Shown here: piece by piece, positions 51,940-60,320 of the stretch
Position numbering within the stretch: position 1 is the first letter of the stretch
Layout: each line of letters opens with the position of its first letter
NCBI GenBank assembly: GCA_963823555.1
Contig: CAWGMA010000001.1
Span: 2,048,001-2,112,000, forward strand
DNA: 64,000 bases
Direction of reading: 5' to 3'
DNA from: Candidatus Eiseniibacteriota bacterium
GTDB taxonomy: Bacteria; Eisenbacteria; RBG-16-71-46; CAVPCR01
Notes under the pieces: generated by a model
What the model was told of the DNA's origin: nothing
Seen by the model: only the letters and a program-made list of their open reading frames with translations
Databases searched by the model: none
Position numbers and translations under genes: made by a program

Positions 51940-54003
51940 TCAGGGCAACAAGATGACCTTGCGGCTGGCATGGAACGCTCCAGCCTGGGCACTCACCAAG
52001 TAGATCCCCGGGGCCACACGCTGGCCGCGGTCGTCCCGTCCATCCCAAGCCATCTCGGCAGCCCGGACGTCGCCCGGGAGCCCGGTAGCCAGGTGACGCA
52101 CCACACGCCCGTCCACGCTCACCACCATCAGGTCGGCAGCGATCCCCGCCGGGACCTCGACGGTGAACCGGACATCGGCCTGGGCCGGCTGCGGATGCGG
52201 AAGCGAGAGCCGAAGCCCCGGAGCGGCTGCAGCGCCGGAGCGCGTCGCCGCGACCGGCACGAGGAACCGCTCGACCGGAGCACCGGGGGCCGTCCAGCCC
52301 ACCCGGTACTCGTAACGCACTCCGCTGATTGCCGTTACGTCGACAAACCGAGCCCAGCTTCCGTCCGCCCGGATCGGGTCGGCGTTGACCTTGATGAAGG
52401 GATCGTCGCTCGAGAGCTCGACGGCCATTCGCTTGACCTCGGCTGCCCGGAGGTTGGCCTGAGCGAGGCTGGCCTTGAGCGCCAAGATCTCGGCTTCCCG
52501 TCCCGGACCGTCGGCGAGGGCCGGCTCGAGCTCGCGGCGATAGAGGTTGAAGAGGGTGCCGGGCACGAAGTGGTCCGCCTCCCAGGCGACCTCGATGCCC
52601 TCGGCGCGGGGAGCGGCGATTGGCTCGGGCATCGCCACGGCGGCCGCATCGTTGCCCTCGAGGCAGAAGAGCCGGCCGCCGACGCCGTTCAGCATCTGCG
52701 TCCCGACCAGCACGTCGGGGATGCCGTTCCCCGAGAGATCTCCTACCCCGCGAACGGAAAACACTCGCGCCCCGACATCCACCGACCAGATCTCGGCTCC
52801 CGTCACGCCATCGTAGAGGTAGGCCTTGCGATCGAACGATCCGGCGATGACGTCCGAGATGCCGTCGCCGGTCACGTCGTCGACCCGGTCGACGGCCCAC
52901 ACGTCGCCTCCGTTCAGGGTCCCCGCTTCCATCACCCAGATCTGGCTCCCGTCAGCCCCCGAGATGACGTGGGTCGCGTTGTCCCAGGAGGCGACGACAA
53001 CATCGGGCATCTGATCTCCGTTCACGTCGTCAAGGGGTACGATCCGCATTCCGTACTCGCTGGCCCCGACCGTGTACTGCCAGATGGGCGCTCCGTTGAC
53101 CCCCGACAGGCAGCGCGCCTGCTGGGCGCTGCCCCAGGCGGCGAACAAGACATCGTTCTGCTCGTCACCGTTGACATCGACGAATCCATGGGTGTGCCAG
53201 GCCGTGGCTCCGAGGTTGGCGATCCACAGCGTGCTCGCGGTTCCCACGCTGGCCCCGCTCACGCAATAGGCGCGGGTATCCCCGTCTCCACCACCGAAGA
53301 CCGCGTCCCACTTCCCGTCCGAGTTGACGTCCCCGAGCGCCGTCGAGGAGTAGATGACATCGAGCGCATAAAGACGGTAGATGACGCTCCCGGTCCGGCC
53401 GTTGACGCAATACGCGCCGTCATTGAAACTGCCGCAACCGAAGATGACGTCGGCCACGAGATCATTGTCGAGATCGGGAATGGGATGAATCGTGTAGACC
53501 CAGCCCGATGTCGCGGGCACGGGTGGCGTCTGGACGTAGGTGTCGAAGGTCCAGAGCGCATCCCCGGTACGGGCGTCGACACCATAGGCGCTGCGTCCGC
53601 CCCAGGCCGTGCCCAGGACGAGATCCGGGAATCCGTCGTTGTTCAAGTCCGGCGCGGCGTTCAGGCAATCATCGCCGTCGCCGCCCGAGTTGGAAGGCCC
53701 TCCGGGAGGGCGCGCTGACCAGATGACCGCCGGCGTCCCGGTCGAGCCACCGCTCAGGAGGTAGAGATGATCCGCAGTTCCGGCACCCGAATCGTAGGTC
53801 TCGGTAGCGATGTCGGGAACCCCGTCAAGGTCGAGGTCGGGCACCTGAACCGAGGCGTTGATGTCCTCGATGCCCTGGAAGACCCAGATCACATCGCCGG
53901 GAGCGGCCTGAGCGGGCGGGGAGGCCCCTACGACGGCGATCGCGCAGAGGAGGACGAGGGTGGAAGCGATGGCGGCCGGGTCGAGCGTGCGCCAGAGTTG
54001 CAT
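51940..54003 (-). CDS. Secreted FG-GAP/PQQ-like beta-propeller protein with FlgD-Ig/T9SS-type CTD
   Basis: About eight DxxxDxxxD calcium-binding repeats; C-terminus PHPQP...WDGRDDRGQRVAPGIY; GGAGG RBS. Confidence 0.82.
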   Translation of the reverse strand: MQLWRTLDPAAIASTLVLLCAIAVVGASPPAQAAPGDVIWVFQGIEDINASVQVPDLDLDGVPDIATETYDSGAGTADHLYLLSGGSTGTPAVIWSARPPGGPSNSGGDGDDCLNAAPDLNNDGFPDLVLGTAWGGRSAYGVDARTGDALWTFDTYVQTPPVPATSGWVYTIHPIPDLDNDLVADVIFGCGSFNDGAYCVNGRTGSVIYRLYALDVIYSSTALGDVNSDGKWDAVFGGGDGDTRAYCVSGASVGTASTLWIANLGATAWHTHGFVDVNGDEQNDVLFAAWGSAQQARCLSGVNGAPIWQYTVGASEYGMRIVPLDDVNGDQMPDVVVASWDNATHVISGADGSQIWVMEAGTLNGGDVWAVDRVDDVTGDGISDVIAGSFDRKAYLYDGVTGAEIWSVDVGARVFSVRGVGDLSGNGIPDVLVGTQMLNGVGGRLFCLEGNDAAAVAMPEPIAAPRAEGIEVAWEADHFVPGTLFNLYRRELEPALADGPGREAEILALKASLAQANLRAAEVKRMAVELSSDDPFIKVNADPIRADGSWARFVDVTAISGVRYEYRVGWTAPGAPVERFLVPVAATRSGAAAAPGLRLSLPHPQPAQADVRFTVEVPAGIAADLMVVSVDGRVVRHLATGLPGDVRAAEMAWDGRDDRGQRVAPGIYLVSAQAGAFHASRKVILLP

Positions 54004-54083
54004 GAGACCTCCACGGCTGGGGTGGTGCTTGCCCACGATTCTAGCACTCCTGTGTGGCGGCGACCAAGTCGGATACCAAAGCA

Positions 54084-54122
54084 ATCGGCGAGCGCTGAGC
54101 AGGGTACGCAGCGCTCGCCGAT
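54084..54122 (-). terminator. 14-bp perfect hairpin downstream of the histone gene
   Basis: ATCGGCGAGCGCTG...CAGCGCTCGCCGAT followed by TGCTTTG on minus. Confidence 0.5.
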
Positions 54123-54192
54123 CGACGGGAAAGAGGCCGGCCCTCTCGACACCGTGTGGAGCGAGGGCTCGACCGCTCGGCGAAAAGTCGAC

Positions 54193-54390
54193 CTAGAGGT
54201 CGGCCGGCTTCAGGGTCTTCCGGTTGTTGGCCAGAGCGCGTTCCTCGGCCTCGGCGATGAGCTGACGCACCTTCCGGTCGAGCGCATCGTAGAACTCGCT
54301 CGAGACATTGCACCTCGTCGCCGCCGCCTTGGTGCGGGACTTCGAGATGATGAGCTCGCCCGCTGCGATCTTGTCAGTGATCTCGGTCAT
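54193..54390 (-). CDS. Bacterial histone-fold protein (singlet, DUF1931/Bd0055-like short-alpha2 type)
   Basis: AAGGAGG RBS; LIISKSRTKAA (alpha1), NVS (L1), amphipathic alpha2, RKTLKPADL (L2/alpha3 RxTxxxxD signature). Confidence 0.85.
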   Translation of the reverse strand: MTEITDKIAAGELIISKSRTKAAATRCNVSSEFYDALDRKVRQLIAEAEERALANNRKTLKPADL

Positions 54391-54467
54391 TCCAGCCTCC
54401 TTGGGGAAAGGAACGGAGTTCCTGGGACTTGATGAGGTCGCCCCTTATCCGGCGCGCATTCGCCACC

Positions 54468-55670
54468 TCAAGCGTACTCGGGACTGGCGGCCGGCGGACG
54501 CGAGGCTTCCCTGCGGTAAAGGGCGCACTCCTCGACCAGCGTTCCCGGCCCCTCCAGATAGGACTCGATCTCGGCCGGCCCAGCCGAGAGCGGAAGGCCG
54601 TGGTCCGGGTTCGCCTGGGCGGCTCGCACGCGCTCGATCAACTTGAGGGTGATCGGACCCGGCCGCCCGCCACCCACGGCCTGGCCCGCGATCTTGATGA
54701 TGGGCATCACACCGGCGCCCGTGCCGGTCATGAAGCACTCGCGATCGGGACCGATGACATCGATGGGCAGAATATCGGCCTCCTCATCCACGTGATAGCC
54801 AGCCTCTCGGGCAAAGCCCAGGATCAGAGCCCGCGTCACACCGTTCAAGCAGTAGGCGCGGCGCGGTGTGGCCACCACGACCCGGCCCGGGTCGCTCTCC
54901 CAGCCGGAGCGCCGCTCGATCAGGAAGAAGTTGTCGACGGTCGCCTCGGCCACGAAGCCCTCCTTGGTCAGCATCAGAGCCTCGAGCGTCGTGGAATTGC
55001 GCGTGCCTTCGATCAGGGCCAGCACATTGTTGAGGTAGTTGTTGCTCTTGATGCGGGGATCGAGGACGGTGGCATCCGGGCGGCGTATGGTCCGGGCCAG
55101 ACCGATCTCGATGCCGGTCTCGTACATCTCACGCGGATAGAGCCGGATCGTCGAGGTCAGCGAGAACAGGGTCGGCGCCACGCACTTGCGCGGGTTGATA
55201 CCGAGATCACCCATCCCCCGGCTCAGCACGAGCCGGATGTAACCCGCGCCGCCAACTGCGCTGAGATCCACCTCGCGCGACACGGCGAGGATGAGCGATG
55301 TAAGCTCGATTTGTGTGTAGGGAATCTCGACGCCGATCCGGCGTGCCGAAGCCCAGAAGCGATCGATGTGTTCCTTGAAGAGGAAGATGCGATTCCCGGT
55401 AATGAGGATGCCCTCGAAACAACCGTCGCCATAGAGCACGAGGTGGTCGAAGCACGGCAGCCCGATCTCATCGACGGCGAAATGGCCGTGCCGCCGTTCG
55501 TACGCGGAGCCTGCATGGCGCTCGGATCGCGCTGGATCGAGCAGGACTCGCGGGGTGACTCCCGGCACAACCGGCATGCTGACGAAGATTCGCGCGCGCC
55601 GCGCCGCTTCGGCCAGGGCTTCTGCCCTGCTCGTAACGTCGGCCTGATGGGACGTATCACCGGTACGCAT
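54468..55670 (-). CDS. ilvE: PLP-dependent aminotransferase class IV (branched-chain amino acid aminotransferase-like)
   Basis: LYGDGCFEG, HIDRFWASA, YIRLVLSRG, IKSNNYLNN, EATVDNFF, LNGVTR, ECFMTGTGA; GGAGG RBS. Confidence 0.85.
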   Translation of the reverse strand: MRTGDTSHQADVTSRAEALAEAARRARIFVSMPVVPGVTPRVLLDPARSERHAGSAYERRHGHFAVDEIGLPCFDHLVLYGDGCFEGILITGNRIFLFKEHIDRFWASARRIGVEIPYTQIELTSLILAVSREVDLSAVGGAGYIRLVLSRGMGDLGINPRKCVAPTLFSLTSTIRLYPREMYETGIEIGLARTIRRPDATVLDPRIKSNNYLNNVLALIEGTRNSTTLEALMLTKEGFVAEATVDNFFLIERRSGWESDPGRVVVATPRRAYCLNGVTRALILGFAREAGYHVDEEADILPIDVIGPDRECFMTGTGAGVMPIIKIAGQAVGGGRPGPITLKLIERVRAAQANPDHGLPLSAGPAEIESYLEGPGTLVEECALYRREASRPPAASPEYA

Positions 55671-55916
55671 CAGCTTCCTCCATCGACTCCACAACTGAAG
55701 ACCCTGAAGACCTGGGTGCCGGGCATGGGCACCGGGCGCCGACGCGGATGGGGATGGAAAGGACCGACCGGCGCGCGGCCGGGTGGGCGAACTCGTCGCA
55801 CCCGGCGCTGAGCATAGCCGCGGTCAGGCGCCAGCCTCAAGCGAAAAGCCGGCGCCAGGCCTGGGCGGGACCGAAGCACCCACCAGAGAGACGGCGGATC
55901 CGGCAAACTCCGTGGA

Positions 55917-56516
55917 TCACTGTTGATGGGGATTCCCTGCCCCCTCGCCGAACACTTGCGCGGTGAACGCAAAGAGCTTGGCATCCGTGTTTCGCCACGC
56001 ATCCTCGCGCAACCCGGCCTTCAGACAAACCTGACGGAGGAACATGTCGCGGCCCCACTGCTGCTCCGTGGCCACCTGCGGCAACAGGAGCCCGCGCCGT
56101 CCACCACTCTCGATGACCAGGCCGTGCCGTCCGGGCTCGACCTCTTCAGGGGCAACGGGTACCAACAACCCCATGACTGAAACCTCGACGTCAACGGCGG
56201 GCAACTCCTCAGGCTCGATAGGCGGAAAGCGGAAGTCCTTGCAGGCTGCGCTCACCGCGTTTTCCATCACCGCCGCGACCAGCGGACGCATCGGCTCGAT
56301 GAACCCCACGCAACCGCGGAGTGCGGAGCCGCGGTGGAGCGACACGAACGCACCTTGGGGCTGGAGCAGGCGAGGGGAAACAGGCATCCCGTGCGGTGGC
56401 CACGTGACGACCTTGCCTTCGCGGACCACATGTTCGAGCGCCAGCCGGGCGAAGGACAGGATTTCGCGCTGCTCATCAGGAGAGAGCGCGGGTAGCGAAT
56501 GGGGATGGGTTGTCAT
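55917..56516 (-). CDS. amrA: AmmeMemoRadiSam system protein A (AMMECR1 family)
   Basis: GAFVSL, LRGCVG, DFRFPP, EVSVM, GRHGL, GLLLPQVA, CLKAGL. Confidence 0.92.
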   Translation of the reverse strand: MTTHPHSLPALSPDEQREILSFARLALEHVVREGKVVTWPPHGMPVSPRLLQPQGAFVSLHRGSALRGCVGFIEPMRPLVAAVMENAVSAACKDFRFPPIEPEELPAVDVEVSVMGLLVPVAPEEVEPGRHGLVIESGGRRGLLLPQVATEQQWGRDMFLRQVCLKAGLREDAWRNTDAKLFAFTAQVFGEGAGNPHQQ

Positions 56517-56636
56517 GACCGTACCGCTGAGCCGAAGCCGCGCCAAAGAGAAGATCGCTCAGTGCGCGTTGATCACGCTATCACGCGCAACGAGAACGGT
56601 CAACGGCACCGGCCCGCGTCGGCCCTGGCAGCCGGG

Positions 56637-56921: not shown

Positions 56922-58049
56922 CTATCGGCGCACGGCGACAGCGATGGGTCCATCACCGGTCGCGAACGACGCGACCAGCGTATCGGATGCAGCATCGACA
57001 ACGTAGACTCGATCATCGTCGAAATCGCTCACATAGAGCAGACCGGAGATCGGATCGAAGGCCATGGCGGTGAGGAACTCGGCCCCGCGGATGGCGTTGG
57101 CCTCGCCGGCCATCCGGCTGGCGAGATCGTAGATGCGCAGGCCCCCGGTGAATCCCGCGGTAAAGCCTCGGTCCCGAGAAAGGGGGATGGCGGCTACCGG
57201 CGACCCACCGAGCGCAACGGAGTCGACCACGGCCGGGACTTCCGGATCGATGACAAAGAGCTCTCCCTCCACGCCTCCGTTGGGTCCATAGTCACCGGTG
57301 CAGACGACGTGAATCCTGCCGTCTGGGGCCAGCGCCAGGGACTGCGGGTTGATCCCGACAAGAAGCCGCGCCCGCACCGTATCCACCGGCACGCTCATCA
57401 CGACGACCTCACCGGGATCATAGACATACGGCGCCACGTAATTGGTGACCGTCACATAGAGATCACCCGCTGGCGGCACGCCGGCCGGCGCGCCTCGCTC
57501 ACCGCCGGCAGCGACGAAGAGCACCCCCTCGGGACCACGCCCAACCGGAGTGCGATGGACGACCTGGCCCGCCGTCAGATCCACGTGGGACACGTCGTTC
57601 GTCATCCAGTTGGAGACGTAGGCATCGCCTGCCCCGGCGAGTGCCAGCGAGTACGGGCTCGTCCCTGATCCGAGATCGATCACGCTCCGGCCGATGACGC
57701 GATCCAGATCGATGACATCGATCCGATTGCTGCCCGAGCTCACGACATAGCCTGTGGTCCCATCGGGGGCGACAACGAGATCATTGGGAAAGGCGCCCAC
57801 CGCCATGGCGTTGGCAGCGGACTCTCCGGTCGATATGAGATAGCGCGACAGCGTCTCGCCAAGCGAATTGACGGTGAACACAGCGGGCTCGAGTGTCGGT
57901 GGCACGACATCGGTCACGTCGTCACCACAACTCATGCCGAGGAAGACCATCGGCAAGAGCATCACCGTGATCCGCAGCGGCGGCACCTGCCGGTGCGGGG
58001 CGCAAGCAGTCCATGTCCGGAGTGGCGAGCGAACTCTCGACTCTCTCAT
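56922..58049 (-). CDS. YncE/BtuG-like beta-propeller lipoprotein
   Basis: Lipobox-like GMSC; YVTN-type repeats; ATGA-coupled to the TonB-dependent receptor. Confidence 0.78.
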   Translation of the reverse strand: MRESRVRSPLRTWTACAPHRQVPPLRITVMLLPMVFLGMSCGDDVTDVVPPTLEPAVFTVNSLGETLSRYLISTGESAANAMAVGAFPNDLVVAPDGTTGYVVSSGSNRIDVIDLDRVIGRSVIDLGSGTSPYSLALAGAGDAYVSNWMTNDVSHVDLTAGQVVHRTPVGRGPEGVLFVAAGGERGAPAGVPPAGDLYVTVTNYVAPYVYDPGEVVVMSVPVDTVRARLLVGINPQSLALAPDGRIHVVCTGDYGPNGGVEGELFVIDPEVPAVVDSVALGGSPVAAIPLSRDRGFTAGFTGGLRIYDLASRMAGEANAIRGAEFLTAMAFDPISGLLYVSDFDDDRVYVVDAASDTLVASFATGDGPIAVAVRR

Positions 58050-59974
58050 CGTGTCTCCAAGGTGGCCAGACGCAGGGCCAGACGCCACTCGCGTCCGGGA
58101 AGTGGATAGTCGCGCACATCAACAGCGGCAACGCCGCCGACGTTGCGGACGGCTAGAGATGCCTTGAGGCGCGGGCCAAGTTGTTGCTCGGCGCTCAAGT
58201 CGACCAGCCCGTATCCGGGCAGCGATTTCGTGTTGGCCGCGGTGACGTAGCTCTTTCCCACGCCATGCCAGGCGGCGCGCAGATCGAGCCCGCTCGAAAC
58301 CGGCACCGCGATCTCGACGTGACCTTCGACCAGAGCCCGGTACGGGAGACGCCTGCCCCCCACCTGCGCATCGCCGGTGCGATTGCGGGCATCCAGGAAG
58401 GTCACAGCGGCTTCGAGCTCGCCTGGACGCGGCAGGCCGGCGAACGAAACTGCGGTCGAGCCCTCGATCTCCAGCCCCTGGACCACGGCCAGGCCGATGT
58501 TGTGTGGCCGGTAGCGCCCATCCGGTCCCGCGGTCCACTGGATCAGCTGGGCAATCTCACGATGAAACGCGCTCACCGCCAGCCGCGCCCCACCACCGCG
58601 CGGACCGGCGAACCCGCGCTCGAGACCCACCTCGAGCTCGGTCGCGAGCTCTGGATCCAGATCCGGATTGATGAGCGAGGCGCCACGATCAGCGGCAAAG
58701 AGGTCATCGAAGCTCGGTGGACGATAGGCGCGTCCGGCGGCCGCGCGCAGCTCGAGCGCTCGCGGCAAATGCACCGCAACGGCCAGGCGTGGGCTCACCA
58801 CTGCTTCGAGCCCGCTCTCCACGTCGAGCCGCACCGCGGGAGCGACCTCGAACCGGCCCCTCCCCCATCGCCAGCGCACGTACCCGGCGGCGGTCCGGCG
58901 TTCGCGAGCGCCATCCACCGTGGACTCGAGGGTGGCGCGCCGCCATTCCATCCCGGCGGAAAGCAATGAAGCCGCGGCCACTCGATCGAGGCGGAGGTCG
59001 AGACCAAGAGCACGGTTCACGTGGCGATCCGCGATGGCCAGGCCGGGATCGGAATACGACCGGCGTTCCCGATGTCCGTTGACAGCCAGGGTGAACCGCG
59101 AACCGGGCTCGCCGGCGGTCCCACCGAACGCCAGTTCGGTGGCCACTCGCATCCGGCGATCGCCGCGCTGGGCAGCGGGAGTGGGAAACTCGACCGTTCC
59201 TGGCACCCCCTGCTCGCCGCTATCCAGCGCCCCATCGAGCGTGATCCCGAGACCGGAGTCCGAGCGCATCTTGAACCCGAGCGCTGCGCCCAGCGCCTCG
59301 ACCTCGGCATTCTGACGCGAGACCTCCTGGCCGCGCGTTGTGAGGCGGTAGTCCCCGGCGGTCGTCAACCCGGACGCTGAGAGCCAGAACCGGCCGCCTG
59401 GCCCGGCTCTCTGCTCGTGCGCCACCGTGGCGGCGCGGGTCCCGAAGCTTCCGGCCTCGAGACGGAACGTGGTCGCGTTCCGCGCGGCTCCCGTCGGGCG
59501 CGTCACCAGATTGACGACCCCGCCGAGAGCATCCGAACCGTAGAGCGCCGAGGCGCCCCCCCGCACCACTTCGACTCGATCGAGAGCGGCCACGTCGATG
59601 GCACCAAGATCGACGCCGCCGCCCTGAGCCGGGGTCAAGCGCCGGCCGTCCACCAGAACGAGCACCTGCTCGTTCGATACCCCGCGGATCGAGAGCGAGG
59701 CAAAGCTGCCCGGCGCGCCGAAACGAGCCACGCGGAGACCGGGCACCCACGCCAGCGCATCGGCGACGCGCAGGACACCGCAACGATTCAGGTCCGTGCC
59801 GCGGAGGGTGGATGAAGCGACGGGGAGGTCGGCGTTGAGGCTGCGCCAGGCTTCGGCCTCGACCGGGATGGGTTCGAGGACGTAGCGGACGAGAGAATCG
59901 GGAGGGGCTGGCTCCGCCGCTGCATGCGCAGCGAGGAACACGCTCCAGGCGGCAAGCACGAGTCGCGCGAGCAT
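58046..59974 (-). CDS. btuB: TonB-dependent receptor, probable cobalamin transporter
   Basis: Plug motifs SIRG, VLVLVDGR, RVEVVRGGASALYGSDALGGVVNLVT; terminal YPLPGREW; lies downstream of a B12 riboswitch. Confidence 0.85.
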   Translation of the reverse strand: MLARLVLAAWSVFLAAHAAAEPAPPDSLVRYVLEPIPVEAEAWRSLNADLPVASSTLRGTDLNRCGVLRVADALAWVPGLRVARFGAPGSFASLSIRGVSNEQVLVLVDGRRLTPAQGGGVDLGAIDVAALDRVEVVRGGASALYGSDALGGVVNLVTRPTGAARNATTFRLEAGSFGTRAATVAHEQRAGPGGRFWLSASGLTTAGDYRLTTRGQEVSRQNAEVEALGAALGFKMRSDSGLGITLDGALDSGEQGVPGTVEFPTPAAQRGDRRMRVATELAFGGTAGEPGSRFTLAVNGHRERRSYSDPGLAIADRHVNRALGLDLRLDRVAAASLLSAGMEWRRATLESTVDGARERRTAAGYVRWRWGRGRFEVAPAVRLDVESGLEAVVSPRLAVAVHLPRALELRAAAGRAYRPPSFDDLFAADRGASLINPDLDPELATELEVGLERGFAGPRGGGARLAVSAFHREIAQLIQWTAGPDGRYRPHNIGLAVVQGLEIEGSTAVSFAGLPRPGELEAAVTFLDARNRTGDAQVGGRRLPYRALVEGHVEIAVPVSSGLDLRAAWHGVGKSYVTAANTKSLPGYGLVDLSAEQQLGPRLKASLAVRNVGGVAAVDVRDYPLPGREWRLALRLATLETR

Positions 59975-60096
59975 CGCACCCTCCGACGAGGCACGAACGT
60001 CGCAGCCGGGGCCCCTTGCCCCGGTGCGGCGGCCGAAGACTCGCGAGAAGGTGCCGGCGGCTGCATCACCGGCTCAAACGATCCACGCACCTCGAC

Positions 60097-60123
60097 AAAA
60101 AACCCCGCCTCGAAGAGGCGGGG
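60097..60123 (-). terminator. Riboswitch expression-platform terminator
   Basis: Minus strand CCCCGCCTC-TTC-GAGGCGGGG followed by a T-run, between the aptamer and btuB. Confidence 0.75.
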
Positions 60124-60169
60124 CGCGCCAAGTGCCCTTCCCTCGAAGGCCTCCGACCTAGAAGCTTGG

Positions 60170-60320
60170 GAGCAGGTCTCCTGACTTGCGGGTCGCTCTA
60201 CTTGCTGCCACTTCCCAGGGATCGTTCCCCAGTGTGCTCACGCAGCTTTCGTCGCCGCTCACAGTGGCGGGACCGTGCCGGATTTGCACCGGCTTCCCTA
60301 ACGCATCCCAAGCGGTATTC
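60170..60320 (-). ncRNA. Cobalamin riboswitch
   Basis: Minus strand AGGGAAGCCGGTGCAAATCCGGCACGGTCCCGCCACTGTGA...CACTGGG...CTGGGAAG...AAGTCAGGAGACCTGC (B12 box); promoter TTGACG-17 nt-CATGAT at 60381-60353. Confidence 0.95.

Follow-up and report, generated by a model that had tools for sequence, protein, structure and literature searches.

What kind of histone, if any, is encoded by a 65-codon reading frame in the genome of a Candidatus Eiseniibacteriota bacterium, and how might its product act on DNA? The frame lies within a stretch of 64,000 nucleotides, referred to here as the window, and its features and neighbors are collected in Table 1. A first-pass annotation, made from the letters of the window, had read the frame as a stand-alone gene for a non-nucleosomal histone, had raised the prospect of a major chromatin protein in a poorly studied lineage, and had left open whether the protein is of the Bd0055-like or the face-to-face (FtF) type.

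Table 1. Features of the histone locus, with positions given as those of the window.
Feature	Position	Strand	Remarks
FG-GAP repeat protein, C-terminal FlgD-Ig-like match below cut-off	51940..54084	-	downstream neighbor
GC-rich hairpin, then weak T tract	54135..54174	-	possible terminator (candidate); not conserved
Histone gene	54193..54390	-	65 aa, 54390->54193; probable FtF alpha3 type; single copy in genome
Histone fold core, L13-L65	54196..54354	-	net charge +4
N-terminal tail, residues 1-12	54355..54390	-	net charge -2; predicted disordered
Shine-Dalgarno AAGGAGG	54396..54402	-	5-nt spacer to ATG
Speculative promoter TTGAGG, 16 nt, GATAAG	54444..54471	-	putative; overlaps stop of upstream gene
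Aminotransferase of class IV, resembling IlvE at scores under the NCBIfam cut-offs	54468..55694	-	upstream neighbor; adjacency kept in genus and order
TonB-dependent receptor	58046-59974	-	then YncE-like propeller

The 65-codon histone gene is real and is under purifying selection. It lies on the minus strand, a detail that the first-pass annotation had not given, and its product does end in RKTLKPADL, with 26 residues from VS to RKT. The open frame comprises 83 codons with no start upstream of the ATG used, so the gene stands alone as had been proposed, and the strong ribosome-binding site is equally present (AAGGAGG at 54402-54396, with the ATG 5 nt further on). Over the 53 codons of the core, the same-genus copy L086 gives a pairwise dN/dS of 0.08 and six other relatives give 0.13-0.26 (all seven pairs tested), and the majority of the differences from relatives are found at codon position 3. 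Among the pattern matches in genome contigs, 542 of 565 code for a histone relative. Searches of the genome with the query family, PF00808 and PF09123 revealed no second histone apart from one fragment at E 1.0, although divergent histones might escape such searches.

The elements that flank the gene are less distinct. The downstream hairpin that had been noted does exist at 54174-54135 (-23.8 kcal/mol over 60 nt, followed by 4 T in 8), but it is weak, with a z score against shuffles of -0.46 over 56 nt and -2.21 over 111 nt. A scan of 53900-54700 for promoters and terminators found none, and the four relatives that were folded have unrelated sequence at this place. With the empty scan, the 56-nt z score, and the differing relatives, the hairpin as a conserved terminator is unsupported. 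The sigma-70 scan does not call the putative promoter either. In three of the close relatives, TTGC(G/A)C and CACGAT, 17 nt apart, are found at a similar distance to the start.

The encoded protein is a truncated-alpha3 prokaryotic histone and is non-nucleosomal, a conclusion on which profile searches, AlphaFold2, Foldseek, and VIA-align agree and which bears out the earlier reading. The two Pfam models that had been suggested as a check both match, but both remain below their cut-offs: DUF1931 (PF09123) scores 18.7 bits against 21.8, over profile positions 19-53 of 138, and CBFD_NFYB_HMF (PF00808) scores 15.8 bits against 21.4. No NCBIfam model matches the query, and the archaea_histone model is matched weakly by two of 48 family members; one of the nearest clusters in the ESM Atlas has PF00808 on 17% of its members. 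Among solved structures, the single sequence has only four matches at E up to 10, all of them alpha3 histones, namely HTkC (the best, E 1.2e-5), HLp, and two HBb constructs. A profile of the 48 homologues matches HTkC (9F2C) at E 6.4e-9, HLp (9QT0) at 5.2e-5, and HBb at 0.54 and 0.67, two HincII rows in the same search being chance matches.

The AlphaFold2 monomer has a mean pLDDT of 76, which reaches about 86-93 in the core and falls below 50 in residues 1-8, with helices spanning residues 21-26 and 33-54, followed at 62-64 by a turn of three residues. Foldseek ranks 1-8 consist only of HLp, HTkC, and HBb chains, with HLp at the top (TM 0.73), HBb at ranks 5-8, HMfA at rank 13 (TM 0.41), and no match at E 0.001 or better. 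Across 48,161 chains, VIA-align gives Z 6.0 for HLp (rmsd 2.1, 54 aligned), 5.9 for HTkC (rmsd 2.0, 54 aligned), and 5.6 for HBb (rmsd 2.0, 53 aligned), with the remaining histone folds at 4.6 or less. The fold matches listed are nearly all histone-fold proteins, with these three as the best. Since the Z values are modest and tied (within 1), the monomer fold shows the alpha3 class and not the subtype, FtF or HBb. The three helices and two loops of an alpha3 histone are found in both the AlphaFold2 model and the fold matches. The 26-residue span aligns without gaps with HTkC, HBb, and HLp, and the chain ends one residue past D64, as befits a short alpha2 and a truncated alpha3; the full-length alpha3 past the Asp and the longer alpha2 of nucleosomal HMfA/B are absent. 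Nor does the protein belong with the pseudodimeric DUF1931 class, being a single 65-aa fold of 18.7 bits in an 83-codon frame.

The subtype is better judged from individual residues. FtF histones are defined by a ring, a closed toroidal homotetramer (Schwab et al. 2024, PMC11390915), and that paper names R41, N45, R47, T49, D54, residue 55, and K11 as the FtF residues of D4GZE0, and describes the bacterial dimer histones as being without equivalents of R41 and N45. The Eisenbacteria protein has the same set at the same offsets, as R51, N55, R57, T59, D64, the terminal L65, and K21. The tetramer arginine, R51 (HMM 48), has the chain end 14 residues on and aligns with R45 of HTkC and R49 of HLp; the tetramer asparagine, N55 (HMM 52), has its equivalents in N45 of D4GZE0 and N53 of HLp; and the alpha1 lysine, K21 (HMM 16), precedes R51 by 30 residues, just as K11 precedes R41 in D4GZE0. 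The RxTxxxxD motif reads R57-K-T59-LKPA-D64, with an R57-D64 clamp in the core. In HTkC (bioRxiv 10.64898/2025.12.06.692711), exchange of R45 for Ala gives dimers, DNA is contacted by K7, S8, K9, K11, K52, and T53, and R22 enters the minor groove. These contacts align with K17, S18, R19, K21, K58, and T59, the predicted DNA contacts of the query, and the minor-groove arginine is replaced by Asn28.

Conservation of these positions was followed in homologue sets that were picked by likeness to the query and whose members are related, such that the counts speak of constraint and not of independent events. Pooling of 95 genome loci with 48 proteins gave 132 unique homologues, the identical protein of L003 and L086/L109 being counted once. 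R51 is found in all 132; N55, R57, K58, T59, and D64 in 131 each; and K21 in 130. The whole motif is kept in 131, and the chain ends one residue past the Asp in 131. Among 80 metagenome loci, eight partial or distant ones were left aside, and the 72 full matches (63 unique) all keep R, N, R, T, D, and K. Of 657 representatives, the best 150 include 115 whose chain ends in the motif, and all but three of these 115 (112) carry both the R and the N. Bacterial dimers are marked by having neither the FtF Arg nor the FtF Asn, whereas here both are present and nearly invariant. The residue pattern points to the face-to-face type over the Bd0055-like type, and a closed tetramer is what these residues would predict.

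The very short alpha1-L1 region with its Cys, to which the first-pass annotation drew attention, is also present: counted on the alignments, the stretch from K21 to S30 measures 9 residues, where HTkC has 13, HBb 12, and HLp 11. It is, however, no peculiarity of the query. The K-to-R spacing is that of D4GZE0, and the short region is common to the subfamily, as is Cys27 (128 of 132 homologues, with Ser, Tyr, or Ile in the other four, and Met in HTkC and HBb). A packing role would be the simplest reading of Cys27.

Comparison with the solved histones brings out both likeness and difference. HTkC (Thermococcus kodakarensis, PDB 9F2C) shares a gap-free alpha2-L2 with the query, its R45, which is needed for the tetramer, corresponds to R51, and its DNA contacts are mostly kept. 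However, HTkC has 59 aa and next to no tail, whereas the query is bacterial, carries a 12-residue acidic tail, and has an alpha1-L1 four residues shorter; the query also retains the Arg-Asp clamp, for which HTkC has a His instead, and has Asn for R22. HLp (Leptospira perolatii, PDB 9QT0-9QT2) presents R49, N53, R55, D62, and terminal residue 63 at the places of R51, N55, R57, D64, and L65, and both proteins have a short tail that is not strongly basic (in HLp, its visible part). Here the identity is about 30%, the alpha1-L1 of the query is two residues shorter, and its gene is without the adjoining SMC/MAP/DUF350 neighbors of HLp; the host has HU/IHF, whereas Leptospira is without HU. HBb, or Bd0055 (Bdellovibrio bacteriovorus, PDB 8CMP, 8FVX), has the alpha3 fold, the alpha2 length, and the RKT motif in common with the query, whose alpha1-L1 is three residues shorter and whose profile match to HBb is much weaker. 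According to PMC11390915, HBb is a DNA-bending dimer without the tetramer R/N pair.

On analogy with HTkC and HLp, we favor, with a probability of about 0.78, a mechanism in which handshake dimers would form a ring tetramer and DNA of any sequence would be wrapped around it over about 60 bp, the histone being one among several nucleoid proteins. Two chains would pair into a handshake dimer, and two dimers would close into a ring via the alpha2 end, loop L2, and the one-turn alpha3. Across this interface R51 would grip the terminal carboxyl of L65, and N55 would bond R57; as both stacking faces would be occupied, no hypernucleosome would be expected. The DNA backbone would run round the rim, held independently of sequence by K17, S18, R19, K21, K58, and T59, with a footprint of about 60 bp for each ring, the value given for HLp and within the 50-60 bp expected of FtF histones. 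The histone would most likely work beside the four HU/IHF proteins of the host, as one of several nucleoid organizers. Its acidic tail would be a floppy appendage that brings the net charge down to +2 and may weaken binding, and this low charge, set against +7 to +15 in basic-tailed relatives, counts against the ring reading, as does Asn28 in place of the minor-groove arginine of HTkC.

A number of other readings have to be weighed against the ring. That there is no histone gene at all, the true frame being an overlapping plus-strand ORF of 221 aa (53767-54432), has next to nothing in its favor beyond the presence of that ORF: it is the codon-aligned antisense frame of the histone, where the histone changes silently at third positions, as it does many times, this frame changes at its first positions, and hundreds of histone homologues are known from searches. 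As a real gene the ORF was rejected, the selection pattern already refuting it. Scarcely more credible is a nucleosomal HMf-type histone that builds hypernucleosomes. The RKTxxxxD motif and the weak PF00808 match are in keeping with it, but the chain ends one residue after D64 to leave a one-turn alpha3, HMfA comes only thirteenth in Foldseek, and HPhA reaches Z 4.4 with 53 aligned residues scattered over a 60-residue span. Also improbable is a bacterial dimer of the HBb/Bd0055 type that would bend or coat DNA without forming a ring. The alpha2 length and RKT motif, the Foldseek ranks and the VIA-align tie of HBb, and the match between Asn28 and the L1 Asn of HBb would all suit such a dimer. 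It is opposed by the R/N pair, which is absent from dimers and kept in 131-132 of the 132 members of the subfamily, by the S and D that HBb has at these places together with a chain that extends beyond the Asp, and by the profile E of 0.54 for HBb versus 6e-9 for HTkC.

The tail presents a separate issue within the ring reading. An extra N-terminal segment had been noticed in the first-pass annotation, which overlooked its acidity. Its 12 residues, with a charge of -2, match the last 12 of an 18-residue acidic tail in the closest relatives, and the start of the query corresponds to the second Met of the six closest acidic relatives, whose 18-residue tails carry a charge of -4 or -5. With starts at genome loci set by an RBS heuristic, 115 of the 132 unique homologues have tails of at least 8 residues, of which 106 are basic, one is neutral, and eight are acidic; the other 17 are shorter. 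Metagenome loci add 62 tails, of which 3 are acidic, two being identical to the tails of proteins already counted. Seven of the eight acidic-tailed sequences, the query included, form one clade with an SH-aLRT of 90 in a core-only tree, a quick version of 53 columns that is mostly unresolved. At +2, the net charge of the query is like that of tail-less members (0 to +6), while most basic-tailed members have +7 to +15.

From such a pattern it could be argued that the acidic tail is functional, either as an autoinhibitory DNA mimic folded on the basic rim or as a linker between rings or to a basic partner, which would give a regulated histone of lower affinity. The single clade, the 18-residue pattern conserved in six of its members, and the predominance of basic tails elsewhere speak for this idea. 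The tail of the query, however, is shorter, diverged, and only -2; the 17 homologues with tails below 8 residues make the tail look dispensable; bacterial tails are without conserved sequence (PMC11390915); and the clade members are kin, so that one clade counts as one event. Furthermore, in the visible part of the HLp tail, which is not basic, Lys, Glu, and Asp occur once each, yet HLp wraps about 60 bp (bioRxiv 10.1101/2025.05.08.652872), so an acidic tail need not alter the mechanism. We regard a functional role for the tail as improbable, and hold in similarly low esteem the proposal that a small Eisenbacteria clade turned the usually Lys-rich tail of a widespread FtF subfamily acidic and so gave the histone a brake of its own, working by DNA mimicry or by linking one ring to another. 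Our literature search on acidic FtF tails found nothing relevant, and supplementary figure 13 of PMC11390915 may already show such tails. At the other extreme, five proteins of the same subfamily (P0070, P0076, P0078, P0083, and P0085) have long Lys/Arg-rich tails and charges of +16 to +23 as called; these tails resemble those of two rows in Hocher 2023 Table S1.

Less remote than a functional tail, and compatible with the same ring chemistry, is the suggestion that the histone is the main and highly abundant chromatin protein of its lineage. Leptospira is without HU, and its FtF histone has been proposed as the main organizer (bioRxiv 10.1101/2025.05.08.652872); in Leptospira interrogans and in Haloferax, FtF genes rank within the top 2% by expression (PMC11390915). 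The strong Shine-Dalgarno sequence and the purifying selection also fit this suggestion. In contrast to Leptospira, four HU/IHF genes are found in the present genome. The ferritin-like family PF00210 (Dps or bacterioferritin) has three matches. Across the phylum, HU/IHF is present in 200 of 201 genomes, with 2-4 in each of the 15 that match the histone strongly, whereas only 18 of the same 201 match the histone at E 0.01 or better; each of these tallies includes one unpublished genome, G015. The 15 strong matches are joined by three marginal ones (L098, L099, and L100, E 0.003-0.008, families f11 and f15), which are either divergent histones or noise, and in the two largest of the families sampled, with 87 and 41 genomes, no genome gave a match. 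Codon bias is at the 68th percentile of 3225 length-matched windows, in a weak test where the ribosomal-cluster genes have a median at only the 83rd. Two RNA runs gave small shares (0.09 and 0.08). In run X1 the only exact pieces on 6 kb are two of 151 nt over 54179-54476 (gene and leader), amounting to about one fragment in a run that was found with this region, and the pieces of run X2 fall on the aminotransferase; RNA contigs of this kind can neither rank genes nor show transcription. Considering the four HU/IHF genes and the patchy distribution, with codon bias and RNA uninformative, the earlier description as a major chromatin protein is possible but unsupported, and we think it doubtful that the histone is the main organizer.

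The surroundings of the gene accord with a chromosomal locus. The order TonB receptor, YncE-like propeller, aminotransferase IV, histone, and 2-oxoacid:ferredoxin oxidoreductase is kept in relatives from the genus and the order, with no chromatin gene among the conserved-order neighbors. In L003 (Candidatus Eisenbacteria bacterium), where the histone is 82% identical, the same gene order is found with neighbors 59-82% identical. The FG-GAP gene adjoins the histone in L113 and L009/L110 and was not found in L003/L109. That the histone is chromosomal and vertically inherited, at least within the order, is the best explanation. Relatives also come from records whose titles name Krumholzibacteria, Methylomirabilota, Myxococcota, Planctomycetota, and other groups, and none of 58 pattern matches in viral contigs was confirmed as a histone relative. 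No neighbor is conserved across the family: among 80 genome loci those of the query are seen only in L003 and L009, and the neighbors that do recur are lineage-limited, in at most 20 of the 80, so there is no operon-level system.

Several further observations concern the wider gene set. One gene lies directly 3' of the histone in 20 of the 80 genome loci, mostly Myxococcota-titled (L010, L027, L029, L033, and 16 more), and another neighbor recurs in 12-13 loci, mostly Methylomirabilota. Within the window, an AmmeMemoRadiSam system protein A is encoded at 55917-56546 on the minus strand (TIGR04335, above cut-off), and the leader of the TonB receptor, in the 60016-60200 region, may presumably hold a cobalamin riboswitch. 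Just past the ribosomal protein cluster, an ORF at G000:C3:579888-581938 carries a CAIYCRVS-type motif, which we take to mark it as serine-recombinase-like, and may belong to an integrated element. Among the proteins collected, 14 have two tandem alpha3-type histone folds in about 117-130 aa (P0090, P0092, P0097, P0098, P0100, P0105, P0120, P0124, P0129, P0137, P0152, P0168, P0174, and P0196). These are FtF-like doublets, most with the Arg/Asn pair in both halves and some with several Cys in the linker.

FtF histones are already described, with two structures solved, and the subfamily was listed among bacterial histones in 2023 (PMC10627809). There, Table S1 of Hocher et al. 2023 (supplementary file 8) has five rows of the subfamily with an SKSRTK/SKARTK motif, four from Planctomycetes and one from Proteobacteria, one of them identical to the L067 protein; unlike that of the query, their tails are basic or 3 residues long. 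In supplementary file 8, Eisenbacteria appear only in the genome list, Table S4. A search for literature joining Eisenbacteria and histones found none, and supplementary figures 6 and 8 of PMC11390915 may show the phylum. The protein is most likely an ordinary new FtF member, odd only in its short tail, which is acidic although basic tails prevail among its close relatives. With it the family reaches into Ca. Eisenbacteria, and it presents an FtF histone alongside several HU/IHF proteins, unlike the situation in Leptospira. Its practical value lies in the natural series that basic-tailed, tail-less, and acidic-tailed members form on a nearly invariant core, which makes the function of bacterial histone tails readily testable in vitro.
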